Virus record (IMG/VR): IMGVR_UViG_3300027690_000096 | Source: a virus | Length of the DNA stretch: 64,000 nt | Direction: 5' to 3' (one strand) | In this document: piece after piece, positions 29,031-53,384 of the stretch | Layout of the letters: each line of letters opens with the position of its first letter | Position numbering within the stretch: the stretch's first letter is position 1 | Program-made: the position numbers and the translations under genes | Notes under the pieces: model-generated | Database searches by the model: none | The model's input: only the letters and a program-made list of their open reading frames with translations | Told to the model about the DNA's origin: nothing

Positions 29031-29777
29031 TCATTGCAATATGTTTGCAAGCATCAGCCTGGCTTTAAGCTTGAAAGGTATCTTAACATTCTGTTCAATC
29101 TCTTCAAACCCTATCTCTTCTCTATTCCTTGCTTTCTCTGTTGCATGATATAGATACCACTCTGTTGTTTTTATGGTGTAACATTTAGGGGGTTCACCAT
29201 TAAGCCAGCCTACTGTTCCGTCACTGTTGACTCTGAGATAAGCTATCCTCTGTTCAGTATGAACGCAAAAATCCTCTCCTGCAAATGATTTAAGCGAAGA
29301 AGTGAGATATTTGTCACTATTAGCCAAAATCAAAGCATCTTCGATATCAACAATATTATCTGAAGTCTCTGAATCATCTAAATCTCCTGAATCTCCTGAA
29401 TCTTCTGTTGAATATCCGTCATTTACCTCTTGACTATTTCTTTCCTGATTTCTCTCTTGGTTCCTCTCTTGATTCTGTGCCTGATTCTGCTCATTATTCT
29501 GCTCTTGATTTCCTTCTAAGCCTGATCCTGAATTTACTATATCTTGTTGTTCTTTCTCTATCCCTTTATCGCTTACATGAAAGCCGAACAACGAGAACCC
29601 GAATGCGTAAGCATCAGCAGAAGCTCCTGCGATAGTTACAGCTAACATCAGTATTACAGCAGATATTTTACCAAGCAGGAGAAACATCTTACCTAATCTT
29701 TTCAGATTATTGTAAACCATGTTTTCATTCGTTTTATGCCTTTTGTTCAGTTTAATGCTTTTTTTCAGTTCAATCAC
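29031..29777 (-). CDS. Secreted/membrane protein with QERN low-complexity linker
   Basis: Hydrophobic N-terminal segment; NQER repeats; globular C-terminal part. Confidence 0.7.
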   Translation of the reverse strand: MIELKKSIKLNKRHKTNENMVYNNLKRLGKMFLLLGKISAVILMLAVTIAGASADAYAFGFSLFGFHVSDKGIEKEQQDIVNSGSGLEGNQEQNNEQNQAQNQERNQERNQERNSQEVNDGYSTEDSGDSGDLDDSETSDNIVDIEDALILANSDKYLTSSLKSFAGEDFCVHTEQRIAYLRVNSDGTVGWLNGEPPKCYTIKTTEWYLYHATEKARNREEIGFEEIEQNVKIPFKLKARLMLANILQ

Positions 29778-29818
29778 CTCAAATTATTTTCACTTATTTT
29801 GATATTTATTTGTAATAT

Positions 29819-32800
29819 TCACACAATCCTGAATATGCTTAATATCCAGAATCCAGCCATGCCAAGACCTGTAATCAAAGAAAGGACAGTCAGGTAAAAA
29901 ATAGATTTCTGTGTAAAAGTATCGTTATCAATCCTATCAACAAGGTCAGACGTGAAATCAAACAATTTGGCTTTTCGGATTGTGATGTTATATGGCTGTG
30001 AAACCGCCACGTTGTTTGAATAAACCTGAACAAAGCCGTCAATTTTACCTGTGTCATAAAACTCGTTCAGAAAAATATCATCGCTTAAGTTACCCATTGC
30101 AAATATGTATTTTTCTTCGCCTTCTTTGAAGTCAATCTTAGTATGGCAGTCACCAGTCCTAAGCTCACAGATAGCCCCAGAGAAATAAGGCTTTAGATTG
30201 TCGCTGAAAAATAAAGTAGCCTCTTTGATATCCCCGCCAATCGCCTTGATAACGACCTCCTTATAGAAATCGTCTGTGGGGAGATATGAAATAAGTCTTT
30301 CATGCCCTGGATAATAGAACTGAATATAAACAGACATGCTGTTCTGCTGAGTTATTATTTTTGTGATTGTATCGTTAAGCTCTTCTTCATCGAGGTCATA
30401 ATCACCGCTTCCTCCTCCACCACCACCGCTTGAATCTGTAGGTGGAGCAGAGGATATGACTGTATAATCAAAGCTGTTTGAATATGCAGGATAACCGTCA
30501 TTTGTCCCGTTATCGCAAACAAGCCTTATACTTCCGTCATATAACCCTATCGCTGGATTCACAATACTAAGGGTTACATCTACAGATGTGCCTTCTTCGA
30601 TAGAGAACTCTGTATATGATAGATAGCTGTCAAGACCATCTGAAGCGACAAAATTACATTCAGAAGCGTTATAAACTGTGTTTGATATTGTAATAACCCT
30701 TGTATTTGTTTCGGAATTATAAGTGTTAAGAAGCCATATTGTAGTAGGGGATATCGTAAGGACTGCCGAACTTGAAGATACCCTTATTGTGACTGGAAGA
30801 TTGAATGTTTGCCCGTCTATAATCCTTGTGAGAGTTATATTGAAAGTCTGAGAACCTGCCACATTACTGCTATTTAAAGTTACAGTTATAGATGCTTCTG
30901 TTGTATTGATTAAGGATAATGTTGTATTACTGTATGAAACTGCGGATATGAACGAGGCGTTATGATTATCTGTTATGTTGTATTCAAGCGTAGTGTTCTG
31001 GTCTTGTTGAAGACTAAGAGTGAATGTTGTATAGTTTTCTAGCTGAAGAGTATAGTTAAAGTATGCAAGCGAATCGACCTCAGTTGTAACATTTACATCC
31101 TGCACAAGAAAAGATGAATTAACCCAAGCTGTTGAGTTAGCAGTCCCGTCATTCCCGAGGATTGAAAAGGTTATATTCTCTCCGTAATTGTCAAAGTTTG
31201 CGAATGTCAAAGAGGTTCCGTTATACTGCCCTGAGCTGTTTAACACACCATCAACATACCATCTGTAATATGAAGTGTCATTGTCACTATCTGAATCTGT
31301 GAAAGTCCATGAGGCTGATGCAGTCTGTCCTAAGTAAGTATTAGAGAATGTTATCACTGATATTGTAGGATTTGAGTTGGATATGGTAATTGCTGAAGTG
31401 TTAAGATATGAGGAATATGCTGTTCCGTCGCCACAATAGAGTTCAGCTTTCCAGGAATCTCCTTTTTTTGTTATCGAATCTGATACATTGCAAACATTAG
31501 TATTTGTTCCGTTTAAGATAGTCATGCTCTGGATTGAACCATAAGCTGTTGTAGAATTGTATATTTGGCAATAAGAGGTTATGGTGTTGCCTTCATCAAT
31601 ATCTGTGCAAGTTAAATTGAATTGCAAGACATCAGTTGTATAAGCTGTCGCTGGATATGTAGCGTTTGCTGTGATAGTCGGTGCAATGTTTAAAGACAAC
31701 AGAAGTGCATCAAGCGATAATTTACCCCATACTGAAGCTGATATATTCAGATAATTTATTACTCCTGCAGTGAGTGACGATGAGAAATCTGATGTGGTTT
31801 CTGTTGATAACATATCTGATGGGGCATATAAATCGTTGGTAATTGCAAAAGTTCCTTTGTTTAAATTACCACCATCTCGATAAGCTACAATCAATCTACC
31901 ATCTGATAATTCTGTCATTGAAATATAATAAGTTGTTGCTGCATTAAAGACAGTTTCAACACAATTACCGCCTGAACTATTGCATATCGCAAACTCCCCA
32001 TAAAAAGAATTTTCTTCATCTTGATAAGCTACAGCCAATCTACCATCAGATAGTTCTGTCATTGATATTTCGTTGGTCAATGCAGTATTAAACACGCTTT
32101 CAACACAACTACCCCCTGAACTATTACATATAGCTAAAGTCCCATAACTCGAATTTCCACCATCAGTATAAGCCACTGCCAATCTACCATCAGATAATTC
32201 TAAAATTGAATTAAAAGTAGTGGATGCTGAATTAAATACGCTTTCTACGCAACCCCCTCCTGTGCTGTTACATATAGCTAACATTCCATAATTTGAATTT
32301 CCACCATCTTGATAAGCAACAGCTAATCTACCATCTGATAATTCTAATATTGAATTAAAAGTAGTGGATGCTGAATTAAATACGCTTTCAACACAACTTT
32401 CTCCTGAACTATTACAAATGGCAAAAGTCCCATAATATTCATTACCATTATCGGAATACGCAACAGCCAATCTACCATCAGATAATTCTACAATTGAATT
32501 ATGAAAAGTTCCTGCTAAATTAAACACATTTTCAACACAACTACCCCCTGAACTATTACATATAGCTAAAGTCCCATAACTCGAATTTCCACCATCAGTA
32601 TAAGCCACTGCCAATCTACCATCAGATAATTCTAAAATTGAATTAAAAGTAGTGGATGCTGAATTAAATACGCTTTCTACGCAACCCCCTCCTGTGCTGT
32701 TACATATAGCTAACATTCCATAATTTGAATTTCCACCATCTTGATAAGCAACAGCTAATCTACCATCTGATAATTCAGTCATTGATATATAATTACTTGC

Positions 32801-33121
32801 TGCCAAATTAAATATGCTTTCAACACTACTCGTAATGTGTTTATAACTCCAAATATGATTCCCAGCTATAGAAATTATAACTGAAGAAGGATATCCACTA
32901 TCGTTTATACCAGTTACATCCATTGTGGCAGAAAGAATCGTTGCAGAAAGAACGCCTGTATAATCTGTGAGATTTATCGCACATGTTGTAGAATCGTTAG
33001 ATGTTACATTGCATGAAGTCAGTCCGTTTGAGAATGTATTCAAGGTAATTGCAGATATTGGATTGATGAAAGTCACTCCGATTATTGCAATAAATGTTAA
33101 GATTAGTATTTGTTTGTTCAT
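29819..33121 (-). CDS. Large spike/adhesin-like surface protein with seven 48-aa repeats (putative 7-bladed beta-propeller)
   Basis: Signal peptide, 7 ELSDGRLxVAY repeats, many N-x-S/T sequons, Gly linker, C-terminal TM. Confidence 0.85.
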   Translation of the reverse strand: MNKQILILTFIAIIGVTFINPISAITLNTFSNGLTSCNVTSNDSTTCAINLTDYTGVLSATILSATMDVTGINDSGYPSSVIISIAGNHIWSYKHITSSVESIFNLAASNYISMTELSDGRLAVAYQDGGNSNYGMLAICNSTGGGCVESVFNSASTTFNSILELSDGRLAVAYTDGGNSSYGTLAICNSSGGSCVENVFNLAGTFHNSIVELSDGRLAVAYSDNGNEYYGTFAICNSSGESCVESVFNSASTTFNSILELSDGRLAVAYQDGGNSNYGMLAICNSTGGGCVESVFNSASTTFNSILELSDGRLAVAYTDGGNSSYGTLAICNSSGGSCVESVFNTALTNEISMTELSDGRLAVAYQDEENSFYGEFAICNSSGGNCVETVFNAATTYYISMTELSDGRLIVAYRDGGNLNKGTFAITNDLYAPSDMLSTETTSDFSSSLTAGVINYLNISASVWGKLSLDALLLSLNIAPTITANATYPATAYTTDVLQFNLTCTDIDEGNTITSYCQIYNSTTAYGSIQSMTILNGTNTNVCNVSDSITKKGDSWKAELYCGDGTAYSSYLNTSAITISNSNPTISVITFSNTYLGQTASASWTFTDSDSDNDTSYYRWYVDGVLNSSGQYNGTSLTFANFDNYGENITFSILGNDGTANSTAWVNSSFLVQDVNVTTEVDSLAYFNYTLQLENYTTFTLSLQQDQNTTLEYNITDNHNASFISAVSYSNTTLSLINTTEASITVTLNSSNVAGSQTFNITLTRIIDGQTFNLPVTIRVSSSSAVLTISPTTIWLLNTYNSETNTRVITISNTVYNASECNFVASDGLDSYLSYTEFSIEEGTSVDVTLSIVNPAIGLYDGSIRLVCDNGTNDGYPAYSNSFDYTVISSAPPTDSSGGGGGGSGDYDLDEEELNDTITKIITQQNSMSVYIQFYYPGHERLISYLPTDDFYKEVVIKAIGGDIKEATLFFSDNLKPYFSGAICELRTGDCHTKIDFKEGEEKYIFAMGNLSDDIFLNEFYDTGKIDGFVQVYSNNVAVSQPYNITIRKAKLFDFTSDLVDRIDNDTFTQKSIFYLTVLSLITGLGMAGFWILSIFRIV
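31830..32825 (-). repeat. 144-bp intragenic tandem repeat x7, including an exact duplication of about 246 bp (32099-32344 = 32531-32776)
   Basis: Direct sequence comparison; offset 432 = 3 x 144. Confidence 0.92.
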
Positions 33122-33160
33122 TATATCCTCCTTTGGTCGCCTTTAATATCCTTTGGTATT

Positions 33161-33634
33161 CTATCCATATCTTGATTTTAATCTCAGCCAGAACCCAGCT
33201 ATGAACGCCACGCCAATAGTCATAAACGGATATAAAACCCCCCCAGCGATTTTCTCGGAGAGTTCACGCCAGGTATAAAACTCAGCGAGGTTTTCATATT
33301 TATCGAAATCAAAGACTGTATGGGCTGTCATATATCCTTTTTGGACGCTGTCATTAATCTTGAGATTAAAATCAAGGCAAACGCTTTTCGCTCCTTTTCC
33401 GTGCATCACATGAAAGGCTTCTTCGGTAATTGTTGCAAACTGGATGATTCCAAACAAAGAGAGTATTATAAGAAAAATAAACTTGCTTTTTTTCAATGAG
33501 ATTATATTTCTATCATTTGGCTTCTTAATTTTTATTGGTTTCACTTTCTTCACGCTCACAAAAAATATTTGATTATTATCCATACTATTGCCCCTGCCGA
33601 TATAACCAAACCTATTGGGTTGGTAAACAGCCAA
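33161..33634 (-). CDS. Membrane protein, possibly a degenerate M50-like peptidase
   Basis: TM, then EEAFHVMHG, then second TM. Confidence 0.45.
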   Translation of the reverse strand: MAVYQPNRFGYIGRGNSMDNNQIFFVSVKKVKPIKIKKPNDRNIISLKKSKFIFLIILSLFGIIQFATITEEAFHVMHGKGAKSVCLDFNLKINDSVQKGYMTAHTVFDFDKYENLAEFYTWRELSEKIAGGVLYPFMTIGVAFIAGFWLRLKSRYG

Positions 33635-35373
33635 ATTGAGGCTTGAATCAAAAAAGGCATTAGGAGATATAGCGTTAAAAGTGTTATGAATATTAAAAAG
33701 ATTATTATAGTCAACGCTACATATTTCATTATTCCATCGCTGTGAATCGAGACTGAAGAAGAAGACAGCAAAGGAAACTTATTGACTATGAGCGAAACTA
33801 AGGTAGGAATATTATTAACATTCTTATCCTTAGTAGATGTAAGGTCTATTGATTCTCGTTCAGTTATTGGTTCAAGGATTGGTTCAGCAGATTCTAAGAC
33901 GGGTTCAACAGCTACATAGACGCAACTAAAGTTTAGGCATTGCATACCATCACAGCAATCGACTGAAAACACGCAAGAATCGCCTTCTGATATACATGAA
34001 CTGCCACCGCCTCCACCTCCACCGCTGCTTTCGCCTGATGAGGTTATCGGGCTTAATGTGTAATAATATAGATTGTAATCATATCCTGTTGAATAATTAG
34101 TGCTAGGTATGCTCAATTCAGCGTATGTAACACCATCTGTTGTAGTATGCGAGACTAAAGAAGAGGTTGTATTATCTGTTGCAGAAGAACCCCAAGTGGC
34201 AGTCTTACTCTCCCATTCGGTTATCGAGGTAAGGTCTATATTTTCTGTTATTATCTTGTTTGACAGATTGAAGTTTAAGAAATATGTCCTGTCAAGAGAC
34301 CAAAGGCGATATTCGCCAGACAAAACATAATCAGATATTGATTCTCCGCTCCAGTTTGATATGACTGCATCATAACTAAACCTATATTCCTGCGAGCTTG
34401 AAGAGTTTAAGACAGACAGATTAAACAAGATATGGGTATTATTATATGAAGAGTTCAAGTCAGGCCATAAAAGCCCGTCTTGTTTTTCAGCGAGAGTAGA
34501 CGAATCATAATAATCAAGACTTATTGCAAGCATTATCTCAGGAAGGTCAACAGACAAAGTATTATTCAACGTAAAAGCCTTGTATATATTATAACCAGTT
34601 CGGACTATGAAGGTATCTCCTGCAATCGTATAACTCAAATCCTCCTCGATGAAATCTGCTGAATATGAACCATTATGTGACGTAGTCCCGTTTGTGACAT
34701 TAATTATCCTGTAAGAATTTCCAGCATTTGCTCCGAAGGAAATGTCTGTAAAATTTCGCAATAGATTATTTGTTATGTTGAATTCACGCAAGAAATGTTG
34801 TAATTCAAGACTACTATATGATAAATTGTCTTGATAATATTCAGAGCCAGGCAAAGAAACCTCCACGCCTTTTTGTTTTGTTGTATTGATTCGAAAATGC
34901 GAATCCAATGCAGTCGGATAAAAACTGTTCGAAGAGTTTTGAGGCAATGTGATTGAGCCAGAGCATGAATTAATGGTGCTGTTGTATGCCAGACTCTTAT
35001 TGCCTGATTGAGTGTTAATGTAACAAGAAGATATGCCAAACACACCAGAGGTCACATCATAACTCGCATTATATGACTGATTGCCAGACAATAGAGAGGT
35101 CAAGTTTATTTCAACATTCTGTATCAATGAGGCGATTGAACCATTGATATATAACCCAGTCGCAGTCACGTTAACGCTTGACGCATTGAAAGCTGTAACG
35201 ACTGTATAAGTATTATTACTGCTTGTCGGATTAAAGATGACTCCATCGCCTACTTCGACAGCGTAAGTTGAAGACATTAATATTAAACTAAAAAAAAATA
35301 AGAAGCTGAAACTTAATAGGCTGGAATATCTACTGGAATATTTGCTGGTTTTATCATCTGTCTTTGGTTTCAT
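33556..35373 (-). CDS. Surface glycoprotein with Gly linker, Cys-rich knot and C-terminal TM anchors
   Basis: Signal peptide, N/S/T-rich, SSGGGGGGG, CISEGDSC..CC..C, terminal hydrophobic helices. Confidence 0.8.
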   Translation of the reverse strand: MKPKTDDKTSKYSSRYSSLLSFSFLFFFSLILMSSTYAVEVGDGVIFNPTSSNNTYTVVTAFNASSVNVTATGLYINGSIASLIQNVEINLTSLLSGNQSYNASYDVTSGVFGISSCYINTQSGNKSLAYNSTINSCSGSITLPQNSSNSFYPTALDSHFRINTTKQKGVEVSLPGSEYYQDNLSYSSLELQHFLREFNITNNLLRNFTDISFGANAGNSYRIINVTNGTTSHNGSYSADFIEEDLSYTIAGDTFIVRTGYNIYKAFTLNNTLSVDLPEIMLAISLDYYDSSTLAEKQDGLLWPDLNSSYNNTHILFNLSVLNSSSSQEYRFSYDAVISNWSGESISDYVLSGEYRLWSLDRTYFLNFNLSNKIITENIDLTSITEWESKTATWGSSATDNTTSSLVSHTTTDGVTYAELSIPSTNYSTGYDYNLYYYTLSPITSSGESSGGGGGGGSSCISEGDSCVFSVDCCDGMQCLNFSCVYVAVEPVLESAEPILEPITERESIDLTSTKDKNVNNIPTLVSLIVNKFPLLSSSSVSIHSDGIMKYVALTIIIFLIFITLLTLYLLMPFLIQASIWLFTNPIGLVISAGAIVWIIIKYFL

Positions 35374-35410
35374 GTTTAGGTTGATGTTGATTTTTTTTAC
35401 TGATTTTTCG

Positions 35411-36634
35411 TTAAGATTTTACTGCTGCAAGGCTGGCTCCGCTCATTATCCTGATTATATATCCTCCGTCAAAATCGTCAGGGATTTTATGTATTTCTTT
35501 TGCAGATATTGAAGCATTTATTGTCAATATTCCATCATCTCCGAACACGCTGAATATGTTTGGATATATGTTTGTATCTGTGCTGAGTGTGCAATTGTCG
35601 GAGATATTTATAGCCCAATCGCCAGAGCCTGAGTATGTGCATGTGTCAGTTATTGTTGTAATATTAAGTGCATCAAGCGATAATTCTCCCCAGACTGAAG
35701 CAGATATATTCAGATAATTTACAACTCCTGCCGTGAGTGAAGATGAAAAGTCTGATGTGGTTTCTGTTGATGAAAAAATTCCTGATTGATTCCAGATAAC
35801 CGAATCAGAGATTGAAATTGATGGTGAAGATGGATAAGTTTCATCTTGATACAATTTAAAATCAGCAATTGCACCAGTGCTACTTAAACCACCCGACACT
35901 TTCCATCCAGTTGATGGATGATTATAACCCATTAAATATTTATCTGTAGATTTATTTATTAAAATAGTATATCTAGCAAAAGAAGTAGTAGCAGTTTGAT
36001 TTATAAAATCGAAAAAGATTATATATTTTTTATCATCTGATATATAATATGTTGAATCAAAAGTAATATTTCTATACTCACCAGAACTTACAGACCCCCA
36101 AGATGATAAATTATAATCATTTGCAACTATAGTATAATTGGAAGAACAATTATCTACAGGATTATATCCACTTGTCGATAAAAAATCAATAATATCAGTT
36201 TCACATATTTTAATATCAACTACAAAATTTTCATTTTCTGGTTCTCCTACATCTTCACCCATTAATAATCCAATTTTAAATATATTACCTGTTGATGAAT
36301 TTGTAATTAATAAATAACCATCATAACCTAATGATACAGTATTATATCCACCACAAAATATTACTGGTAAACTTGTCCCATCTGGTTTTTCTGAAATAAA
36401 TGAATTATAAACTTCTACTATTGATGTTGCAATCCCACTAATATTCATGGTAGCAGAACTAACGCCTGTATAATCTGTAAGATTTATCGCACATGTTGTA
36501 GAATCGTTAGATGTTACATTGCATGATGTCAGTCCGTTTGTGAATGTTGTTAATGTATCCGCAAATATCGCGATAGATAAAGCTAATAAGAGAATAAAAA
36601 ATACATAAACCTTAATAATATTTCTGCTTAACAT
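35411..36634 (-). CDS. Secreted spike-like protein sharing a scaffold with 29819-33121
   Basis: Shared NGLTSCNVTSNDSTTCAINLTDYTGV and STETTSDFSSSLTAGVxNYLNISASVWG segments. Confidence 0.8.
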   Translation of the reverse strand: MLSRNIIKVYVFFILLLALSIAIFADTLTTFTNGLTSCNVTSNDSTTCAINLTDYTGVSSATMNISGIATSIVEVYNSFISEKPDGTSLPVIFCGGYNTVSLGYDGYLLITNSSTGNIFKIGLLMGEDVGEPENENFVVDIKICETDIIDFLSTSGYNPVDNCSSNYTIVANDYNLSSWGSVSSGEYRNITFDSTYYISDDKKYIIFFDFINQTATTSFARYTILINKSTDKYLMGYNHPSTGWKVSGGLSSTGAIADFKLYQDETYPSSPSISISDSVIWNQSGIFSSTETTSDFSSSLTAGVVNYLNISASVWGELSLDALNITTITDTCTYSGSGDWAINISDNCTLSTDTNIYPNIFSVFGDDGILTINASISAKEIHKIPDDFDGGYIIRIMSGASLAAVKS

Positions 36635-44148: not shown

Positions 44149-44715
44149 CTAACTGGCAGACCATTTGCCATCTCTGAACGATACATATTTGTTTATGACT
44201 TTTTCTTGGTCATCTTCATAAACATAAGCGACAAGCTGACCATCGAAATCGTCTATCATGTTATCGCAATTGTTATCTGGTAGCTTGAAATCAAGCACAT
44301 AATTCTTACGCTGAATTTCGTCACCGCCTGGATGATTATCTTTACCTGAATCGCAATCGACCTCGTTATTTGTTCGGGTATTAACAAGGCAGACTTTCCA
44401 TTCATAATCTTGATTGAATACTCCTAATAGTGAATATTCCCTTACTTCTGATACGGATATTTTTACTGGTTCAGGAGAAACACCCCAGAAAGCTGTATCA
44501 GAAACATCAAGAGTTCCAGCAATCCTCACGCCAATGTTCTTTGGCTTACATCCATTTTGAGATGGTGTTAAACTGTCTATAACAGAACCGCCTGATACAT
44601 TGTTTACAAGGATTACTGCTAATACTCCGAAGACTACAATGCCAGCCATGATTGCTGCAATGTGAATCATTCCTTTGTTTGTTTTTGTTAATTGATTAAG
44701 ATTATTTCTTGTCAT
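44149..44715 (-). CDS. Membrane-anchored protein with NKG prepilin-like N-terminus
   Basis: TNKG/MIHIAAIMAGIVV. Confidence 0.7.
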   Translation of the reverse strand: MTRNNLNQLTKTNKGMIHIAAIMAGIVVFGVLAVILVNNVSGGSVIDSLTPSQNGCKPKNIGVRIAGTLDVSDTAFWGVSPEPVKISVSEVREYSLLGVFNQDYEWKVCLVNTRTNNEVDCDSGKDNHPGGDEIQRKNYVLDFKLPDNNCDNMIDDFDGQLVAYVYEDDQEKVINKYVSFRDGKWSAS

Positions 44716-45658: not shown

Positions 45659-46726
45659 TTAAGCCTGGTAATAAATCGCTGTGGTGTTGCCCTGAGAGAT
45701 TACATTATTGTCTTCATCATATATTCCAGTTATGATTGTAAGCTCATCTGCATCAAGGTCTTTATTGATTGGATACCAATGGACTTTCACGTTACCTTGG
45801 TCTTCTTCAGAGGTTGCTGAAGTCATCTTCACATCAAAGCAGATTTCAACTTTTTTACCGTTGCATAGCTCACCGCTGTATTTCATCAGCTTATACTGAT
45901 CCATGTCAAGACCTGTTGCGCTGTGGTTTGTATCGTGCGCTGCAAAGAATGATGAGTCAGTGTTCACAAGGTCGCTTGAGCTAATCTGTGAAACATAGGT
46001 TGCATCATACTCGAAAGCTACAATCGCTCCATACCTTGAAGAACATGCTTCAGTTGGTGCTTTTACAGTTATGCAAGGTGTGTATGTTTCAGACCCGTCG
46101 GCAAGTTGGTGATTTGCGTCGCTGTTTGATGTTACGCCATTATCATTCACAATCGTTAATGTTGGCGCGCTTGCTGGCTTAAGCATTGGCTGGATGTCAA
46201 CATCTGAACATACGGTTGAGAACTCAATCTCTTCAGCGAAATAGCTGGATATTGGAGTTCCTAAGTTGTTTCCTGCTAGAGCTTTATATTTAGAAAGAAC
46301 ATCAGCTTTTGTTGTGGTTGCATCGTCTGCTACAGTCTTCAATACAAAATTGTCATCGCCAATCTTACTATAGATTGTGAGTGTATTGTTTGGGTCTGTG
46401 CCAGCCTTGTAAGCGTTTATGTCGTTGTATAGAGCATAGACTGAAGCAATTCCATCGCATGAAAGAGCATCCTTAACTGCTGGTGTTACAGAAGAATCTA
46501 TTAATTTTTCACCGCTAGGGGTTGTAACTTTTAGTTGAGGAGCAGGGGCTTCTTCGCCATCTGACTCGCCATCTGACATAAAATGTTGATAAGCTCCATA
46601 TCCAAGTATTCCTACACCTACTAATGCAAGAAGAGGAATTATTGCTGCTGCAATTCCTTTTTTCTGTTTTATCAAAGCGTTTGTTGGCACGACTTCGATT
46701 TTTTTTATATTATGCAAAGTTTTCAT
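45659..46726 (-). CDS. Candidate major structural protein with KKG prepilin-like N-terminus
   Basis: First gene after a promoter with a strong AGGAGGA RBS; QKKG/IAAAIIPLL; beta-rich body. Confidence 0.55.
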   Translation of the reverse strand: MKTLHNIKKIEVVPTNALIKQKKGIAAAIIPLLALVGVGILGYGAYQHFMSDGESDGEEAPAPQLKVTTPSGEKLIDSSVTPAVKDALSCDGIASVYALYNDINAYKAGTDPNNTLTIYSKIGDDNFVLKTVADDATTTKADVLSKYKALAGNNLGTPISSYFAEEIEFSTVCSDVDIQPMLKPASAPTLTIVNDNGVTSNSDANHQLADGSETYTPCITVKAPTEACSSRYGAIVAFEYDATYVSQISSSDLVNTDSSFFAAHDTNHSATGLDMDQYKLMKYSGELCNGKKVEICFDVKMTSATSEEDQGNVKVHWYPINKDLDADELTIITGIYDEDNNVISQGNTTAIYYQA

Positions 46727-46782: not shown

Positions 46783-46823
46783 TTTATATACTAGAGGCTC
46801 AAAAGGTCACTTTTTGAGCCTCT
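46783..46823 (-). promoter_or_regulatory. TATA box with an adjacent 12-bp perfect inverted repeat
   Basis: TATATAAA on the - strand (46783-46790); AGAGGCTCAAAA-N7-TTTTGAGCCTCT (46793-46823). Confidence 0.55.
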
Positions 46824-47098
46824 CATTTAAATAAGGTTCTACTATTGAGTAATGAACAGCGAGAGGATGAGCAGATCCAATAGGTAGATTTTTGGAAGTT
46901 TTTTTGGTTACTTTTGTGCTTTCTTTTGCTTACTTTAGAAATATAATGCGGTCTCTTTTTGCTACTTTTACATTCTCTTTTGCTTACTTTTAGATATTTC
47001 TCAGATTTACTCAGAGGCGGATTTTGAAAGGATATCATTAAAAATATGCAAATAATATTATATGTTAGGATATAAAATATTGGCTTCGCCAATATATT

Positions 47099-47608
47099 TT
47101 ATGTTCGCGCAAGGCTAAGATAGATTGGAGCCTTAAGATAAGGAGGGCATTTAGGTAGATTTCTTTTTTTATTATATAAGCCTTGATTAATATTTATAAC
47201 TGAATTTAATACTTTTCTGTAGCCTTGTTCATCACGAATATCTATACAGAGTAAACCACTTATTATATAGACAGTATTAAGCAGAGTTGACCTAGAGATT
47301 TTCATATGCTTACTAATTTCATTATACATCTTTTCTAAAGTTACTTTACAATCCTTGCTTGGAAGATTATGCAGATATTTAGCAATCAAGATAATCCTTA
47401 AAGCCATCCTTTTATTTATATGAATAAAACTTACTGGCTCTCCTGATGAATCATATCTATACACTAATCTGAATTTGTTATGGATTGGTATTCTTGATTT
47501 TTTTTTACAATTGTTAATTGGATTAGTTTGGTCTGGATTATCCTGAATAGAATTATAATTTTCTTTAGATGTATCATAATGAAAATTTGTTGAGTCTTCT
47601 GTCATCAT
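47099..47608 (-). CDS. Winged-helix-like DNA-binding hypothetical protein
   Basis: VTLEKMYNEISKHMKISRSTLLNTV. Confidence 0.5.
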   Translation of the reverse strand: MMTEDSTNFHYDTSKENYNSIQDNPDQTNPINNCKKKSRIPIHNKFRLVYRYDSSGEPVSFIHINKRMALRIILIAKYLHNLPSKDCKVTLEKMYNEISKHMKISRSTLLNTVYIISGLLCIDIRDEQGYRKVLNSVININQGLYNKKRNLPKCPPYLKAPIYLSLART

Positions 47609-49008
47609 ACTTTTCCTCCTAATTGTTCTAATGCTGTTTCCATATCAAGAACACCCCTAAAACTGTTCTCTGGAATGTCTTTTAGTTTTCTTGGTTTCTG
47701 TTGCTTAAGCCAGGATTTAACTCTCGATTCATATTCCCTAACTGGCATAGGGAAAAAACCTCCTATTGTTGAAAGGTCAATTATCTCAGTTAGAAAACAA
47801 TTCTGAGTTTCATATAAATATTCTGCTGGGGATTCCTTATAAGTCTTAAGCATTTGAATGAAGGGTTCATTAGCTCGGGCTTTGTGGCAATAAGGAACTA
47901 CTCCGAATCTGTATTTGTTTTCTATGTCAACGAAATCACCAACCTTAAGTTTTAATAATGTAGACCTGTCTTTCTTTTTAATTCCAAATATATTTAACAT
48001 GTTAAGGTCTTTTGGGTTTCTAGCTTTGCCTGCATAAATCCTTGTCTGAGAAAGCATGTCAGGAGGTAATGAGGATAAGTTTTGAAGATTCAACCTAAGC
48101 CTTACGCCAAAGCTTCTCATTAGCAGAAGACCTACAAGCATTGAATATTGGAGAGTATTGACTACGTTCTCTAATGCTCTCACTTTCTTCGGCATGATTA
48201 TCTGAATCTCTGGGATAAGGATTGAAAATACCTCATCACTCTTTCTATGACGATGAACACCTTTGCCGATTGTAAGAAGCTCGTTTAGTATTCCTATCAT
48301 AAAACTTGTTGCAGCAACGACATTCTGACCCATCATGAAAAATGTTGAGATTATATTGACTTCTTTATTGTTTGACATCTCATCAAAATTTATGTATTCC
48401 CATCCGCAGCCTTCTTCGCTGAAATCATCATCATCAAAAGCAAGTTTCATCTTGCCCATCTCTTCCTTGAACTCGTTTAAAATTCTGGTTTGACCCATCA
48501 ATTTGTCTCGGTTTGATTTAGAAGCGATTGATTGAAGATGAGACTTTGCAAGTGCCATGTTTGCTGTATCTTCAGAGATCAGCATTGATTGAAGTATTCT
48601 GAAGGGTCTTATCCGAAGGTTCGGATGATGCAGATTAAGAAGCTCTTTGAAGTGGAGATTGTGCTGCAATCCGTTGATGTAAGGAATCCAGAGATTGACT
48701 TTATAACCTCTACCGACAAGACGATTCTTCTCTAAGATATTTCTTAATATGACATCCTGCTGGCTGTAGATTGCGCACGGGTATTCCATCTTAACGTCAA
48801 GGATTATGACTGTCCTATTATGGGCTATGTCATTGTTGACTGCATAAGAACAGATTGTGTCTTTGCCTGAACCTGACTGACCGAATGCTATAAGACTGAA
48901 ATCCCCATCGCCAAAGATAGTGTTCCAGCTAGAAGGGACAGATATATTCTCCTGATACAAGTTAGCAGGATATACTAGTTTCTGACTATAATTTCGAAAA
49001 TTCCCCAT
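47605..49008 (-). CDS. FtsK/HerA-superfamily ATPase with variant Walker motifs (packaging/secretion candidate)
   Basis: GQSGSGKD (Walker A variant), ILIPEIQ (Walker B variant), RSFGVRLRLNLQ. Confidence 0.7.
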   Translation of the reverse strand: MGNFRNYSQKLVYPANLYQENISVPSSWNTIFGDGDFSLIAFGQSGSGKDTICSYAVNNDIAHNRTVIILDVKMEYPCAIYSQQDVILRNILEKNRLVGRGYKVNLWIPYINGLQHNLHFKELLNLHHPNLRIRPFRILQSMLISEDTANMALAKSHLQSIASKSNRDKLMGQTRILNEFKEEMGKMKLAFDDDDFSEEGCGWEYINFDEMSNNKEVNIISTFFMMGQNVVAATSFMIGILNELLTIGKGVHRHRKSDEVFSILIPEIQIIMPKKVRALENVVNTLQYSMLVGLLLMRSFGVRLRLNLQNLSSLPPDMLSQTRIYAGKARNPKDLNMLNIFGIKKKDRSTLLKLKVGDFVDIENKYRFGVVPYCHKARANEPFIQMLKTYKESPAEYLYETQNCFLTEIIDLSTIGGFFPMPVREYESRVKSWLKQQKPRKLKDIPENSFRGVLDMETALEQLGGKV

Positions 49009-49700
49009 AGTTTTTTGCGACGTTTAATTTTACCAGGTTGAATGTCTTCAAGAGGTTTTAGTCTCAGACCTTTCTCACAGATTGTTTTCATCTGGTTTGC
49101 TTTGCTTCTGTATAATTTGTATTCTTCAAGAAGTTTATTATGCTCTTCAGCAAGATGTTTGTAATGGACTTCTCCTCGGTCAATCTCTGTCTGAAGTTTG
49201 TCATATACCAATAACATTTTATCGTATTTGTCACGCAATGCGTTTAACAGCTTAACTTTCTCCTGAATCTTTGCATCAGCTTGAAAGTTTGTCATAATCC
49301 TGTTCTGGTCTTCTTTGTAATCCGAATATTCTTGGGTCACTCTTTGAAGTTTGCTCTCTAAATCATTTATCCTTTCCTTTAGTTCCATTGCAATCCTGTA
49401 TTGTATCTGGACTTCTTTAGCCTGGATAGCCTTCTCAAGAAGTTTTGATTTATTCTCTGGGTCAAGGTCGATGTCTTTCTCAAGCTTGTCATAGAAGAAC
49501 TCAAGCTCTCTTCGAAGTTTCAATACCTGATTATCTGCTTCCTTGACATTATCCTTGAGGAGCGAGTTCTCATCTTTGACCTTGCATCTGGTAACTACAC
49601 ATTCCGAGCCAGACAACATCCCTTTAGTCTTCAACTGACCTACAGCATGAGCTATATTGTCTCTCTTAATCACTTGTTGTATATCTTCATTCATATTCAT
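48975..49700 (-). CDS. Coiled-coil protein
   Basis: Heptad-rich, K/E/Q-rich sequence. Confidence 0.7.
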   Translation of the reverse strand: MNMNEDIQQVIKRDNIAHAVGQLKTKGMLSGSECVVTRCKVKDENSLLKDNVKEADNQVLKLRRELEFFYDKLEKDIDLDPENKSKLLEKAIQAKEVQIQYRIAMELKERINDLESKLQRVTQEYSDYKEDQNRIMTNFQADAKIQEKVKLLNALRDKYDKMLLVYDKLQTEIDRGEVHYKHLAEEHNKLLEEYKLYRSKANQMKTICEKGLRLKPLEDIQPGKIKRRKKLWGIFEIIVRN

Positions 49701-49802: not shown

Positions 49803-50516
49803 TCAGCCCATTGCAGCTCCTATCTCTGAAATCTCTGAGCCTGATGAACCTTGCTTGGTTATAATCTTAACATTCTTGACCTTATCTGATATGTATTGCA
49901 GATGTTGAGCCATCTGTTCAGAGTCAAGATTCTTGACGTTTGCAATATTGGCTACCTGTTCTTCAAGCTTTGCCATTGCCGTGAATACATAACTGATTAT
50001 TGCGGATTGTCTTTCTAGCTGTTTTACTGGAATGATTATGTCTGGGTTTTTGAGTTCTCCACCGTCAAGCCTGCCTAAGTATAATATGCATCCGTTAGGA
50101 TTTTCGTTGTCCTCCTGCGGAATCTCTACCCATTGCCAGCTTTTGCCTTGGATTTCAAGGGTTATGACACCTGAAACGAAATCCCAAAGCCAGACCATGC
50201 CTCTTTCTCTTTGTGACCTAATATCTGGATGAATCAAATCTCTTGGAAATGCTACTCTTCGAGTTTCAAATCCGCCATATTCAAGTATTGGCTGTCCTAT
50301 CTGTGTGCCTGATATACCCGAAAGAGTGTTGATCTGCGCTCCTCTTCTCATAGGGAACCAATCGCCCCACAAATGATTGACGTTCAGCGTAATCATCGCC
50401 AAAGGCAATAAGATTGCTATAATTCTTGCATAAGGGTTCCTGAATATATCAATCAAAATAAATCCTATTGCTATCATAAGACTGCAAAATGCTGCTATTC
50501 CTGTCAAATCTCTCAT
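49803..50516 (-). CDS. Membrane protein with C-terminal coiled coil
   Basis: Two N-terminal TM segments. Confidence 0.7.
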   Translation of the reverse strand: MRDLTGIAAFCSLMIAIGFILIDIFRNPYARIIAILLPLAMITLNVNHLWGDWFPMRRGAQINTLSGISGTQIGQPILEYGGFETRRVAFPRDLIHPDIRSQRERGMVWLWDFVSGVITLEIQGKSWQWVEIPQEDNENPNGCILYLGRLDGGELKNPDIIIPVKQLERQSAIISYVFTAMAKLEEQVANIANVKNLDSEQMAQHLQYISDKVKNVKIITKQGSSGSEISEIGAAMG

Positions 50517-50582
50517 AAATTACACTTCTCCTATCCTTTGGTTGGTTTCTTTTAGTTTTATGAATTTAAAGCGATTTTAGCC

Positions 50583-50972
50583 TTAAAATGCTCCGTTTCT
50601 CGGGATTGGCAGTCTTCTATACTTGACTACGCAACCCCATAAATATGCCAATAAAATAAGGCATGTCATGTTAATCAGATTGTTTTGTATCGCTATCGTT
50701 TCACTCGGTGGGATAATGTCTCTATATGAACTAATCCACCACAAGATGAACAATGTTATGAATATGACAAATGCTGTTATTGGTCCGAACATGACGATAA
50801 TATTCTTATATTCGACGGATTTCTTTCGGATTAAATATAAAAATGGGACTTTTGTCAGGAGGGACGAGCCTAATCTGAACTGTTTAGGTATTTTAATTGA
50901 GTCGCTCTTAATAGGCAGAGGCTTGAGCCTTATTTTGTTCATCGTAACTATTACTCTCCACTCTATATTCAT
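50583..50972 (-). CDS. Membrane protein (2 TM)
   Basis: ORF track. Confidence 0.55.
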   Translation of the reverse strand: MNIEWRVIVTMNKIRLKPLPIKSDSIKIPKQFRLGSSLLTKVPFLYLIRKKSVEYKNIIVMFGPITAFVIFITLFILWWISSYRDIIPPSETIAIQNNLINMTCLILLAYLWGCVVKYRRLPIPRNGAF

Positions 50973-51672
50973 CAGGTTCTATGGATTTTCTTAGCAAATC
51001 TCTTTCAATGTCATACTGTTGCGCTACTTCTTTGCCGAATCTAGACCTGACATATTCAGAATCAGGGTTCTCAATGTATGCAACCTCATAAGCATTGCCT
51101 ATGTCGAGTGTAACAAATATAAACATCCCACCAAAATGGTTTGTCCTTGCTAAGAAATTTACTACCTTATTATAAGGATTCTTATCTCCATCTTTATCCT
51201 TGTTTGATAATTTTATTACATTGTGATATGGCATTGGAGAGCCGAAACCAACTCCTCTATGAGGTCTTGCTTTTGCCCTGCGATAGATGAGTTCCCATGC
51301 CTTAAACTCAAGCTTCTCCATCTTCATAGGTCTTAGTTTTGCCATGTCTTTGTTGAAATAATACCACACACCCATCATGAATAAAGCAAAGACCCACCAA
51401 TGCTCTCTTACCCATCCTTCTTGGATTACATTAAATGCTTCAAGTATAAGCAGGATGACAGCAAGAATAAGGGTTATGATGATAGTCTTAAACAGAGGGT
51501 TCATAAACCTCTTATCTTCTTTTGAATCAATCTTACGACGGGATTCTATGTAAAACAACAGCGAGATAAAACCAATTACTGCAACTATTACAATCGTCAA
51601 CTGCCAGGTAAGATTAAAACCAGTATCAACTACTGGTTGAACTTGACCATAAACAACTGAATTATCTACCAT
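50908..51672 (-). CDS. Membrane protein (3 TM) with soluble C-terminal domain
   Basis: ORF track. Confidence 0.7.
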   Translation of the reverse strand: MVDNSVVYGQVQPVVDTGFNLTWQLTIVIVAVIGFISLLFYIESRRKIDSKEDKRFMNPLFKTIIITLILAVILLILEAFNVIQEGWVREHWWVFALFMMGVWYYFNKDMAKLRPMKMEKLEFKAWELIYRRAKARPHRGVGFGSPMPYHNVIKLSNKDKDGDKNPYNKVVNFLARTNHFGGMFIFVTLDIGNAYEVAYIENPDSEYVRSRFGKEVAQQYDIERDLLRKSIEPDEYRVESNSYDEQNKAQASAY

Positions 51673-51675: not shown

Positions 51676-52032
51676 CTACTTATCTCCTCTAATAACCAAC
51701 AGCATGGAATCTGTTGATATCTCTTGGACATATACACTATCTCCTAAGCTGAATTTTCTGACTTCTTTCCCGTTATAAAGACCCAAGCATTCCTTGACAA
51801 ATTCAATTTCGCATCTAACAGGGTCTTCAAGATATTGCTTGATAGCAATCTTTAAATTCAAAATCTTTGACCTTGCTTGTTCAATGCCTTTTTCAGCTCT
51901 ACGCCTGCCAATCTTTCTTTTGAGTTCACAGAGAGGGACTGCTCCATTTTTTACCTGGTTAATCAGCGAGATTAGTTCAGGTTCTTGAATCAATATTGGA
52001 AAATCTCTCATAGTCATGACTATTTGTTTCAC
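51676..52032 (-). CDS. Hypothetical protein
   Basis: ORF track. Confidence 0.55.
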   Translation of the reverse strand: MKQIVMTMRDFPILIQEPELISLINQVKNGAVPLCELKRKIGRRRAEKGIEQARSKILNLKIAIKQYLEDPVRCEIEFVKECLGLYNGKEVRKFSLGDSVYVQEISTDSMLLVIRGDK

Positions 52033-52041
52033 TCTGTATTA

Positions 52042-52251
52042 TCACTCGTAAGCTTGACCTGATATGTTCTGAATCATTATTTCGGCTACACAAAACAGGA
52101 CAGCAAATATCAGCCAGTGCCACCATCTCGACGGGTCACTTATCCCACCTAGCTTATTTGCAGCCATTATCCCATTTGTTAAGACAAATGCACCTTTGTA
52201 TATTGCGAATGTTATTGGCACAGGCCATAATATTGATCCCACTGTTATCAC
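52042..52251 (-). CDS. Small membrane protein
   Basis: Two hydrophobic segments. Confidence 0.5.
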   Translation of the reverse strand: MITVGSILWPVPITFAIYKGAFVLTNGIMAANKLGGISDPSRWWHWLIFAVLFCVAEIMIQNISGQAYE

Positions 52252-52316
52252 CTATATTTCCTTTGGTTTACTCTGTTTATTTGGTTTATAAATAAAATAA
52301 ATAGTATTGTTTGCTA

Positions 52317-52892
52317 TTAAGTTATCACTGGTTCTTTGGTAGATGATTCTGCATCCTTTTCTTGCTGTTTTTTAAGTTTTCTTATATTAACAATGTCAGA
52401 ATGCCTAAGCTCGCATGTTGACCTGAATTCGTCATAAAAAGGGTCATCAGGAGATAAGACATAAGACTGGTAAGCTTTTGCTAGAATTGAGTTAATATTA
52501 ATCTGAGATATCATGGCAGTTAGATATTTCGGATTGTTCAATACCAGGTTGATGAAGAATTTAGGCGTAAATCCCTGCTCGCCATTCTTTTCAGTATCAC
52601 TTAATTTGTCGAAGTCAATCTCTTCGCCATCCTTGAGTATTTTGATTCTATCGCCCAATGCTTCCTTTAGCCTGGCAAAAGACATAGGGATAACGGGAGA
52701 TTCAAGAACAGAGTTTATTACCTTAATCTGGACTTTCTCAGGAAGGTCTTCGATGGATTCGATGTTTTCAATGCGGTATTTTTGGATTTTGTCAATCAGT
52801 GGTAGTTTCTTTGGTTTATCTGCTTTCTTTGTTTTGTCTTTAGTTTCTGTCATTTGTGTCATCTGCTTATTCTGTTTTACTGTATAATTCAC
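52317..52892 (-). CDS. Hypothetical protein
   Basis: ORF track. Confidence 0.65.
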   Translation of the reverse strand: MNYTVKQNKQMTQMTETKDKTKKADKPKKLPLIDKIQKYRIENIESIEDLPEKVQIKVINSVLESPVIPMSFARLKEALGDRIKILKDGEEIDFDKLSDTEKNGEQGFTPKFFINLVLNNPKYLTAMISQININSILAKAYQSYVLSPDDPFYDEFRSTCELRHSDIVNIRKLKKQQEKDAESSTKEPVIT

Positions 52893-52940
52893 TGAAATTT
52901 TATATGTTAATATTTAAAAAATTAATCAAAAAAAATGTTG

Positions 52941-53162
52941 CTATGAAGCAACCATAAGTTTTTCGTATACAGTTCTTACTCTCGACCTTATAGTTTCTAC
53001 TTGATTTTCAAGAGTGGTATATCTCGGGTTATCTAGCAGTTTACCTCTCTGGAATCTGGGGGTTTTCATCAACTGTATTTCTTTTCTGGCAAGAAATCTC
53101 GCCATAGCGCGTAATCTCTCACGTTTATGAAGCTCTTCCTGGGGTCTGGATTCGGTTTTCAT
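52941..53162 (-). CDS. Small basic hypothetical protein
   Basis: ORF track. Confidence 0.5.
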   Translation of the reverse strand: MKTESRPQEELHKRERLRAMARFLARKEIQLMKTPRFQRGKLLDNPRYTTLENQVETIRSRVRTVYEKLMVAS

Positions 53163-53198
53163 TGAAAATGATATTATTGAAAATTATATAAGCTGATT

Positions 53199-53384
53199 TT
53201 AGCATCTAAAAGGTCTTCTTCGGAATACTAGATTTATTTTCATCTTATTTGCAAGAGCAAGGTCTGGATGAGTTTCTTCAAGAGATTTTAGAAATTCACG
53301 TTTAGAATTTTTCTTGAAAATTTCATTCTTTTGTTTTTGAATAAATCTCATTTGTATTTTCTGTTGATCTTTTGACATTACCAT
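53199..53384 (-). CDS. Small basic hypothetical protein
   Basis: ORF track. Confidence 0.45.
   Translation of the reverse strand: MVMSKDQQKIQMRFIQKQKNEIFKKNSKREFLKSLEETHPDLALANKMKINLVFRRRPFRC

Follow-up and report, generated by a model that had tools for sequence, protein, structure and literature searches.

Positions 29031–53384 of the virus record IMGVR_UViG_3300027690_000096 (IMG/VR; 64,000 nt, the whole of which is called the window below) hold a block of membrane-protein genes that is most likely the transmission apparatus of a mobile genetic element. It was read in this way because it makes up a third of an integrative element, because metabolic cargo is almost nil, and because no other candidate transmission module was found in the 64-kb window or in the 5.0 kb recovered past its right end. 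The element is bacterial and integrative, carries its own MCM-based replication module and an ECF-sigma-like/TPR gene pair, and has tRNA or tmRNA genes as integration sites. Within this frame we lean, at somewhat less than an even chance, towards a late operon for morphogenesis and egress, belonging to a temperate virus-like element of about 70–75 kb that has no tail, bears a membrane and resides in sulfate-reducing Desulfobacterota. An earlier note on the same DNA had proposed an envelope or morphogenesis module of a DPANN-like archaeon, forming either an enveloped or vesicle-type particle or a contact-dependent transfer apparatus. The dedicated membrane module of a mobile element is upheld, as opposed to a cellular S-layer locus, and both forms of transmission are kept; the archaeal host is not.

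The block consists of 28 back-to-back, tightly packed ORFs (open reading frames) on the minus strand, present in the ORF listing and in a separate translation, and numbered from g01 (53199–53384) to g28 (29031–29777). The gaps between them range from −79 to +183 nt. The window is divided into two opposed gene blocks, with plus-strand genes from 1 to 28940 and the minus-strand block from 29031. At least one transmembrane (TM) or signal-like segment was found by Kyte-Doolittle scan in 21 of the 28 ORFs, a count that leaves out the single weak internal hydrophobic segment of the ATPase g10. This agrees with the earlier note, which had described about 27 consecutive minus-strand genes, mostly with TM helices or signal peptides. 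Its gene order also held in outline: small membrane and coiled-coil proteins, the ATPase, g13, the CPBP protease, N-anchored proteins, Cys-rich proteins and the sequon-rich g23–g27. A hairpin resembling an intrinsic terminator (28995–28971, minus strand; 9-bp stem with 6 GC pairs, then a T-run) lies 36 nt past the stop of the last gene. AGGAGG-like sites were located upstream of g06, g08, g11, g13, g14, g16, g18, g23 and g27, and the Shine-Dalgarno (SD) motifs ahead of g13 (AGGAGG), g14, g16, g18 and g27 are strong.

Genes g01–g22 are 53–87% identical (g11, 41%) to their counterparts in L024, a relative of 74.7 kb. Codon mismatches between the two fall far more often at position 3 than at position 1, and more often at position 1 than at position 2, with g12 as the exception. 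Because mismatches are concentrated at position 3, the block genes are real (g12 is doubtful), and the core g01–g22 is under purifying selection. This core is kept across relatives spanning 30–44% GC.

The right end of the element was read from L020, a 6.4-kb Logan contig that starts at window position 62542. Beyond the window it encodes a 734-aa ATPase, four small genes, an HTH_17 (Xis-like) protein and a 376-aa Phage_integrase protein, and it stops 29 nt into a tRNA-like 3' end (6417–6445) directly after the integrase. The fragment has C1:G72 and A73, which we take to be identity elements of bacterial tRNA-Pro. A related element (L022) on a 1.06-Mb ENA contig has the same synteny (sigma/TPR, MCM, module) and an ATPase that is 50% identical. 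Its end holds HTH_17 and, at the place of the integrase, a gene of 391 aa; the 3' end of a tmRNA (Rfam, 202 bits; tag ADDYNYAVAA) is 68 nt away. L022 and L020 thus have the arrangement of bacterial integrative elements, in which the genes for a tyrosine recombinase and an excisionase occupy one end, next to a tRNA or tmRNA gene. Attachment sites differ within the family, the tmRNA being used by L022 and the tRNA-like end by the window's element. An att repeat was sought in the window and in L023 without success, and the 40-nt integrase/tRNA junction of the window's element had no exact match in JGI metagenome contigs. GC content is 30% in the distant relative L025, 35–36% in L001 and the window, and 44% in the Olavius elements; where a host flank is seen, the element has 36.8% GC against 42.6% for the flank.

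Past the tmRNA, the 1.06-Mb contig continues with smpB, ptsI, HPr, a LOG-family gene, an AsmA/DUF748 protein and a LysR regulator. Of these, SmpB is, like tmRNA itself, bacterial, and a diderm envelope is indicated by AsmA. The PtsI of this host is 63% identical to that of Olavius Delta 1 and 64% to that of one other genome of the phylum, most of 200 sampled genomes of that phylum being at 44–50%. Because of this flank and the PtsI identity, the host of the family belongs to Desulfobacterota and is not a DPANN archaeon. The named bins with homologues are Thermodesulfobacteriota bacterium, Olavius sp. associated proteobacterium Delta 1 and Candidatus Cloacimonetes bacterium, all of them bacterial. 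An enveloped or vesicle-type particle of a DPANN-like archaeon, comparable to pleolipoviruses or pR1SE, is therefore very improbable. It would fit the low GC (36%), an MCM of archaeal type that, searched against the phage collection, came closest to the MCMs of archaeal viruses (identity only about 30%), an NxS/T sequon excess of the eukaryotic or archaeal style, and K[KR]G together with a hydrophobic N-terminus in five proteins. It is contradicted for the relatives, however, by integration at a bacterial tmRNA beside smpB, PTS (phosphotransferase system) and AsmA genes on a Desulfobacterota chromosome. The bacterial bins, the ECF (extracytoplasmic function)-sigma-like genes, the TPR protein and the intrinsic terminator also count against it; K[KR]G is not conserved, and no PHROG similarity to pleolipovirus families was found.

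The family has at least 47 members, counted as g10 homologues. A scan of GTDB genomes for g10 gave one locus only, in the Olavius Delta 1 metagenome-assembled genome (MAG). No relative was found in IMG/VR with the g10 alignment, none in GenBank phages by megablast with the whole block, and none by tblastn of g10 against plasmids and phages or of g13 against phages. A literature search found no description of this element family. Three relatives that were assembled independently measure 73.8, 74.7 and 75.8 kb, and because the 74.7-kb one (L024, Contig_36) ends at about the position where the integrase is expected, these contigs are probably whole elements. The block adjoins the MCM/origin region in every relative with enough sequence. 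The distant L025 follows the same scheme: its ATPase (about 470 aa) is accompanied by small membrane proteins, a homologue of g13, a CPBP protein, mini-proteins with two TM segments, bitopic proteins rich in Cys, and a giant protein. The Olavius Delta 1 MAG (9.9 Mb) was seen to contain at least three contigs of such elements; two of the Olavius contigs, C1532 and C970, carry no host genes, so integration there is unproven.

Known structural and transfer families were searched for. The block proteins gave no significant match to a capsid, portal, terminase, type IV secretion system (T4SS) or type IV pilus (T4P) family in Pfam, PHROGs or NCBIfam, and 30 flanking ORFs scanned with Pfam likewise gave none. 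Nor did any block protein reach significance against another family in these three collections. The terminase, portal and HK97 capsid of tailed phages were absent from these 58 ORFs and from L020. That no HK97 or double jelly-roll (DJR) capsid, portal or terminase is recognisable here, as first remarked in the earlier note, was thus confirmed, and no canonical T4SS or T4P set was found in the block or in the scanned flanks. Pfam covered every window ORF of at least 400 aa: a 536-aa methylase, the 686-aa HerA-like ATPase, the 693-aa MCM, a 430-aa TPR protein, and others without a family. Pilus machinery (T2SSE, T2SSF, peptidase_A24) was absent from all scanned ORFs in Pfam. No homologue of the pleolipovirus spike (VP4-like) or membrane protein (VP3-like) was found in PHROGs or Pfam.

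These scans bear on whether the element is simply a tailed prophage, with genes for head and tail that are either located in the approximately 10 kb outside the window or too divergent to be recognised. Integration at tRNA or tmRNA genes with Xis and integrase is classic for prophages, and Ig-like domains are common on phage structural proteins. Such a prophage is nevertheless highly unlikely: no terminase, portal, HK97 or tail family occurs in the 58 scanned ORFs, the 5.0 kb past the right end are taken up by the ATPase, small genes, Xis and integrase, the 0.7 kb past the left end by small ORFs, and at most about 4 kb of contig are left unseen.

The ATPase g10 (47605–49008, minus strand) is a soluble P-loop protein of 467 aa in the superfamily of FtsK, HerA and the type IV coupling proteins (T4CPs), and has no N-terminal TM segment by hydropathy scan. 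Its motifs are GQSGSGKD, VIILDVKMEY, ILIPE and RSFGV...QNLS, and a deviant pattern of GxxGSGKD, hhhhD-K-EY, hhhPE and R-SFG...QN runs through the family. Across 33 homologues, columns K49, D50, D71, K73, E75, Y76, P266, E267, R298, Q309 and N310 do not vary. The Walker A and Walker B motifs, the catalytic Glu of the latter, the Arg finger and the downstream Gln are all retained, with GKD in place of GK[ST] and PE in place of DE. The family profile matched solved HerA weakly, yet aligned at both motif regions, and a profile search of 1.84 billion representative proteins returned 34 matches only. Among 18 remote relatives, the domains assigned were DUF87 (10), TrwB_AAD_bind (6), FtsK_SpoIIIE (4), TraG-D_C (3), T4SS-DNA_transf (3) and Pox_A32 (1). 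By sequence, g10 is thus an isolated, divergent branch of the FtsK/HerA pumps, nearest to HerA and the T4SS coupling proteins. Against NCBIfam VirB4_plasma it scored 22 bits (cutoff 590), over the Walker A region only. The distant L025 has a P-loop ATPase of about 470 aa upstream of its g13-like gene. Several homologues (P0009, P0014, P0021, P0022, P0024, P0028) are enlarged to about 600–640 aa and contain the intein/Hint domains PF14890 and PF07591; because of these domains, inteins must have invaded the module ATPase in some relatives.

Two further ATPases bring the element's total of FtsK/HerA-family members to three. The first (22429–24489, plus strand) is a soluble HerA-clade protein of 686 aa without TM segments, matched by Pfam DUF87 (1.8e-12) and by HerA structures in the PDB. 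It is closest to NCBIfam CedD (E 1.8e-32 over residues 70–409; 113 bits against an equivalog cutoff of 600), and its match to TIGR00929 VirB4_CagE reached 21 bits (cutoff 643) over Walker A only. A conserved 227-aa protein always precedes it (pair at 21716–24489), also on Olavius contigs C970 and C1532, and the two genes may form a unit. The second, of which the 5' part lies at 63183–64000 (plus strand), is a HerA-clade P-loop ATPase whose full length of 734 aa was read from L020; a TM scan found no TM segment in it.

The Ced system of DNA import, to which CedD belongs, is T4SS-like (PMC11868833). The Ced and Ted systems and archaeal conjugative plasmids resemble the element in using HerA-clade ATPases instead of a canonical VirB4, and in combining small hydrophobic proteins with polytopic membrane proteins. 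They differ in that the CedD-like gene sits outside the block here, the host is a diderm bacterium, and no homology of the CedA/VirB6 or CedA1/VirB2 kind emerged.

The block could thus be a non-canonical mating apparatus of an integrative conjugative element that passes DNA directly to a contacted recipient, which we regard as possible, although less probable than a particle. The membrane proteins would then form an envelope-spanning channel, g13 and the giant proteins would be adhesins, g10 would act as a coupling-protein-like motor, and the 686-aa and 734-aa ATPases would take a VirB4-like role. The number of FtsK/HerA ATPases, the CedD match and the TrwB_AAD_bind, TraG-D_C and T4SS-DNA_transf domains among remote g10 relatives argue for it, as do the resemblance of g13 to Gram-positive pilins and to PrgB Ig domains, the SprT/ArdC-like, RadC and orphan methylase genes on the element, and the lack of any capsid or lysis gene in the scans. 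The archaeal pT26-2 family offers a precedent (PMC6972569). Against it, no true VirB4 was found, no family match rising above threshold. Pfam and NCBIfam scans, which took in the small plus-strand ORFs in part, gave no relaxase and no VirB2-, VirB6- or VirB8-like protein, and no VirB9, VirB10 or lytic transglycosylase in the scanned ORFs. No outer-membrane component is evident despite the diderm host indicated by AsmA. The three ATPases all have no TM segment, and the two large ones lie 25 kb and 15 kb away from the block. T4SSs do not typically include type I membrane proteins rich in Cys, cargo is scarce, and the relatives are similar in size.

The protein g13 (45659–46726, minus strand; 355 aa) was singled out in the earlier note as the candidate major protein. 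It has a TM helix at residues 26–50, an acidic linker and two β-sandwich domains of the CnaB/transthyretin-like and cohesin/MG-like types. The AlphaFold2 (AF2) model has a pLDDT of 80 overall and above 90 for most of residues 90–355. Foldseek against the PDB returned the Gram-positive pilins SpaA, SpaD, RrgB and BcpA as best matches (E 6e-7). The exhaustive VIA search ranked the CppA pilin highest (Z 10.3), ahead of domains of the CnaB, transthyretin, cohesin and MG types; jelly rolls were absent from the VIA-wide and the top Foldseek matches. The best viral match in BFVD was an unnamed 309-aa protein (A0A5Q2WAX2, E 7e-16), and a cellular cluster of 310 aa in AFDB also resembles g13. Homologues of g13 number 35. 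According to the model, g13 is a pilin- or adhesin-like, N-anchored tandem Ig-fold protein and not a DJR or HK97 capsid protein, so a reading of the candidate major protein as a capsid protein was not borne out. Its two sandwiches superpose on the CnaB/Ig-like domains of Gram-positive pilins and adhesins (SpaA, RrgB, BcpA, CppA, PrgB); unlike these it has an N-terminal TM anchor, no LPXTG and no sortase, identity is 8–12%, and the fold alone is common. The search for a DJR capsid rests on structure models of g13 and g16, and no DJR was among the top matches of g13.

In the 33-member g13 family, K[KR]G occurs in the nearer members only, the distant ones having a plain basic N-terminus followed by the TM helix. 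A prepilin (class III signal) reading of the N-termini, as given in the earlier note, was therefore rejected, and because K[KR]G is lost in distant homologues these N-termini were read as signal anchors.

The next gene, g14 (44760–45539, minus strand), encodes a CPBP (Rce1-like) glutamic intramembrane protease, as the earlier note had called it. PF02517 was assigned to 98 of 100 Atlas neighbours (score 0.93), and structural TM-scores to the CPBP cluster were 0.50–0.55. The motifs FGLFH (FxxxH) and HGGWN (HxxxN) are present and the first motif is degenerate (E-N-R). The protein itself is below the Pfam threshold, and the gene that follows the g13 homologue in L025 is Pfam-positive for PF02517. 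The ATPase call made for g10 was equally sound. A myxosortase-like C-terminal sorting signal for the protease was tried and rejected, as the C-termini of g16, g21, g25 and g27 have no common motif.

The distal genes g23–g28 (29031–37827, minus strand) include secreted or anchored proteins of 399, 407, 605 and 1100 aa. No homologues of g24–g28 were found in L024, where the core is 76–87% identical; partial homologues of g27 and g28 occur on Olavius contig C1532, and shuffled segments are common to g24 and g27. These distal genes are hypervariable and domain-shuffled, in the manner of receptor-binding proteins. L025 also has a giant protein, of 2268 aa. NxS/T sequons in g24, g25 and g27, within 29819–36634, exceed shuffled composition 2- to 2.4-fold (z 4.4–5.5); no such enrichment was seen in the conserved core proteins tested, and g16 has no sequon at all. 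Only about 10% of the sequons in g24, g25 and g27 have D or E at −2. Some Desulfovibrio PglB enzymes accept sequons that have no such acidic residue.

A particle is favoured, tentatively, by the following features. The element has a phage-like plan of two blocks, an ORFan-rich 'early' block facing a single late operon of 25 kb. A DNA-pump ATPase stands at the head of the candidate structural genes, the relatives are of near-constant size, and the block encodes disulfide-rich type I and type II membrane proteins and hypervariable distal 'spikes'. No VirB4 or relaxase exceeded threshold, SD motifs are strong, and transcript-derived contigs of a relative occur in four metatranscriptomes.

If a particle is made, induction would lead the element's sigma factor to switch the operon on. 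The bitopic and polytopic proteins (g04–g08, g13–g22) would enter the cytoplasmic membrane and form a virus-specified patch, where CPBP would trim one or more of them. The soluble g10 would dock on the patch, with g09 and g11 as adaptors, and replicated double-stranded (ds) DNA would be pumped into the nascent membrane-bounded particle. The variable g23–g28 would serve as receptor-binding spikes and set host range. Were the apparatus kept on the donor instead of pinching off, the same parts could act as a mating bridge. We infer these steps, from membrane patch to pumping of DNA into a particle or a recipient, from the genes alone.

Several points weigh against a particle. No protein with a known capsid fold was found (structures were predicted for two of the 28 proteins, and that of g13 is an Ig fold), and neither a lysis gene nor a peptidoglycan hydrolase was detected. 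No relative was found in IMG/VR or among GenBank phages. Viruses usually have one FtsK/HerA-type ATPase; this element has three, and that of 686 aa has its closest match in CedD, which imports DNA in a conjugation-like way. The relatives of g10 lean towards T4SS coupling proteins and not towards packaging ATPases of the Pox_A32 type, Pox_A32 being found in 1 of the 18 remote relatives against 10 for DUF87 and 6 for TrwB_AAD_bind. The set of SprT/ArdC-like, RadC and orphan methylase genes is one that typifies the leading region of a conjugative element. Relatedness alone may account for the similar contig sizes, and we know of no precedent for an enveloped dsDNA virus leaving a diderm bacterium.

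The block might also be cargo, that is, a surface, adhesion or protein-secretion island that alters the host envelope, for instance in aggregation or in symbiotic or syntrophic contacts, with the ATPase serving protein export. We consider this unlikely. It draws on the Ig-fold, lectin-like and giant variable surface proteins, and on the persistence of relatives in a vertically inherited worm symbiont over many samples, with transcription there. On Olavius contig C970 (L017/L018, 14129–16566), the backbone has a SprT-like gene followed directly by a homologue of the 401-aa protein described below, and the 24-kb block is not between them; this contig is incomplete, however, at 26.7 kb. Modules of the pT26-2 family are kept in decayed copies, with a possible host benefit (PMC6972569). 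Set against it are the synteny of the block with the MCM/origin region in all relatives with enough sequence, its share of the element, its DNA-pump-type ATPase, and the lack of any other candidate transmission module in the window and L020.

The closest functional parallel, compared by published description only and as an analogy, is the pT26-2 family of plasmids and integrated elements of Thermococcales and Methanococcales. These have a Pfam-dark module of membrane proteins with a HerA/VirB4-like ATPase, which has been proposed to be a DNA or protein transfer machine, virus, secretion and conjugation all having been suggested (PMC6972569). The core module runs from t26-4p to t26-15p, with seven core proteins (t26-5p, 6p, 7p, 11p, 13p, 14p and 15p), and its retention even in decayed integrated copies led the authors to consider a benefit to the host (PMC6972569). 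A tyrosine integrase, exchangeable replication modules and a syntenic, homologue-free block of at least a dozen mostly TM proteins are common to both. In contrast, the pT26-2 elements are archaeal, of 17–38 kb and with a 12-gene module, whereas the present element belongs to Desulfobacterota, has about 74 kb and 28–29 module genes, and adds a CPBP protease, Ig-fold proteins and giant variable proteins.

Pleolipoviridae and pR1SE, which the earlier note had invoked, also have a membrane-protein-rich module with an NTPase and a variable spike; they too have no genes for an icosahedral capsid, and some of their members integrate. They are haloarchaeal, of 7–17 kb (pR1SE about 50 kb), with few structural genes, unlike the far larger bacterial module seen here. 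The parallel holds as a functional analogy; no sequence or fold similarity of pleolipoviruses or pR1SE to the block was found with PHROGs, Pfam or Foldseek. Tectiviridae, Corticoviridae and Autolykiviridae share bacterial hosts, an FtsK/HerA ATPase before the structural genes, small membrane proteins and variable spikes. The ATPase of these internal-membrane DJR phages is an A32-like protein of about 220 aa, in contrast to the T4CP/HerA-like g10 of 467 aa; the present element has a genome 5–7 times larger and many large Cys-rich bitopic proteins, and no DJR was found.

To our knowledge, nearly all bacterial dsDNA viruses are tailed or have a jelly-roll capsid, and all conjugative systems carry VirB4. 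About a third of this element is a conserved, selected membrane-protein operon that fits neither scheme, and at least 47 related elements occur in sulfate-reducing bacteria, from sediments and a worm symbiosis. Whether it makes a particle or a mating bridge, the answer would add a new bacterial virion architecture or a new class of DNA-transfer machine, and would also explain how a replicon with an archaeal-type MCM moves among bacteria that live close to archaea. It is conceivable, although we hold it with some doubt, that the family is a new lineage of temperate non-tailed dsDNA viruses of diderms, with a lipid-bounded virion made of Cys-rich bitopic proteins, tiny hydrophobic proteins and an Ig-fold anchor, a T4CP/HerA-like pump to fill it, replication by an archaeal-type MCM, and no DJR, single jelly-roll (SJR) or HK97 capsid. 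Such viruses would be to bacteria what the capsid-less viruses are to archaea, and might link conjugation machines with virions.

The other core proteins are as follows. Genes g01–g05 (51676–53384, minus strand) encode proteins of 61, 73, 191, 69 and 118 aa; most of them are soluble and either basic or rich in lysine, and g04 has one TM segment. They are 53–72% identical in L024 with the pattern of purifying selection, and have no family match in Pfam or PHROGs. Just after g02, at 52937–52952, there is a small hairpin, perfectly palindromic and with a T-run on each strand, which may be an attenuator separating the first two small genes from the rest of the operon. Genes g06, g07 and g08 (49803–51672, minus strand) encode small integral membrane proteins by TM scan, without a family match in Pfam, PHROGs or NCBIfam. 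The last of these (49803–50516) is the most conserved protein of the module, at 87% identity in L024 and 31–32% in L001 and L002. Gene g09 (48975–49700, minus strand) encodes a 241-aa coiled-coil protein without TM segments, and the gene shares the last 34 nt of its 3' end with that of the ATPase; the protein had weak matches of coiled-coil type only (ATG17_like in Pfam, E 6e-4; phrog_756, E 1e-3). Gene g11 (47099–47608, minus strand) is kept directly after the ATPase gene in L001, L002 and L024. Its product, a soluble protein of 169 aa, was labelled a winged helix-turn-helix (wHTH) protein in the earlier note and had no Pfam or PHROG match. The doubtful g12 (46823–47092, minus strand; 89 aa, very basic) shows codon-position mismatches of 0.40/0.37/0.49 against L024, with no clear purifying selection, and its equivalent is not called as a gene in L006 or L007.

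Many Cys residues are conserved in the type I and type II membrane proteins of the block. The N-anchored g15 (44149–44715, minus strand; 188 aa) has a Cys-containing ectodomain and is conserved in L001, L002 and L024. In g16 (42714–44114, minus strand; 466 aa), a signal peptide is followed by a 20-Cys ectodomain, an Ig/FnIII-like sandwich and, at the C-terminus, a two-helix membrane hairpin; 17 Cys are invariant across 12 homologues. Its AF2 model is poor (pLDDT 62), and Foldseek returned generic β-sandwich domains only and no fusogen, so that the model neither supports nor excludes a fusexin or class II fusogen. Genes g17 (141 aa) and g18 (97 aa; both within 41775–42677, minus strand) encode small, very hydrophobic proteins with three TM-like helices each, 77–80% identical in L024 and 33–39% in L001 and L002; their equivalents in L025 are two-TM genes of 61–76 aa after CPBP. 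The products of g19–g22 (37862–41758, minus strand) are N-anchored or secreted, and g19 and g20 are conserved in L001. A Cys-rich C-terminal domain is common to g20 and g22 (37.5% identity over 96 aa), which contain 12 and 31 Cys, respectively. Atlas leads for g20 were weakly lectin-like only (scores ≤0.84). A short, W/F-rich amphipathic C-terminal tail was noticed on g19, g20 and g22; together with the Cys-rich domain, it may be a common docking or membrane-association element.

Outside the block, the first gene on the minus strand (53901–55106) encodes a protein of 401 aa that begins with four TM segments and is helical in its C-terminal part. The gene adjoins the intergenic region before the wHTH-MCM genes, is kept at the same position in L001, L006 and L024, and is 43% identical in C970. 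It has no Pfam family, and an Atlas search led to unnamed clusters only. It is probably the 29th gene of the module. Divergent from the module are the genes of a 237-aa protein, called a wHTH protein in the earlier note and without a Pfam match, and of the archaeal-type MCM helicase (together 56008–58781, plus strand), a pairing conserved in every relative examined. The MCM (56700–58781) is full-length, with N, OB, AAA, lid and winged-helix domains (Pfam MCM, 1.3e-89). These are followed by a sigma-70 r4-like protein (59050–59958, plus strand) and a small ORF, the 430-aa TPR protein (60434–61726, minus strand; Pfam) and an ECF-sigma-like protein (61683–62498, minus strand; TIGR02937, E 6e-5, under the curated cutoff). 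Sigma70_r4 and TPR genes are also present in L002–L004 and L021. The plus-strand block contains dozens of small ORFan genes along with two DNA methylases (one of 536 aa; orphan methylases), RadC and a SprT-like protease.

Four annelid metatranscriptome runs, all from one study, contained contigs identical in sequence to L005, the Olavius relative. They cover the MCM gene and the 3' half of the ATPase gene with the next gene, and none lies over 5.6–9.1 kb. This uneven cover suggests RNA rather than DNA carry-over, which contigs cannot prove; the RNA evidence consists of Logan contigs alone and permits no ranking of expression. At 11840–11936 of L005, in the last 100 nt of the contig, the depth of transcript contigs jumps to 16–46 and several of them diverge, so that this segment looks like a repeat or junction common to other loci.

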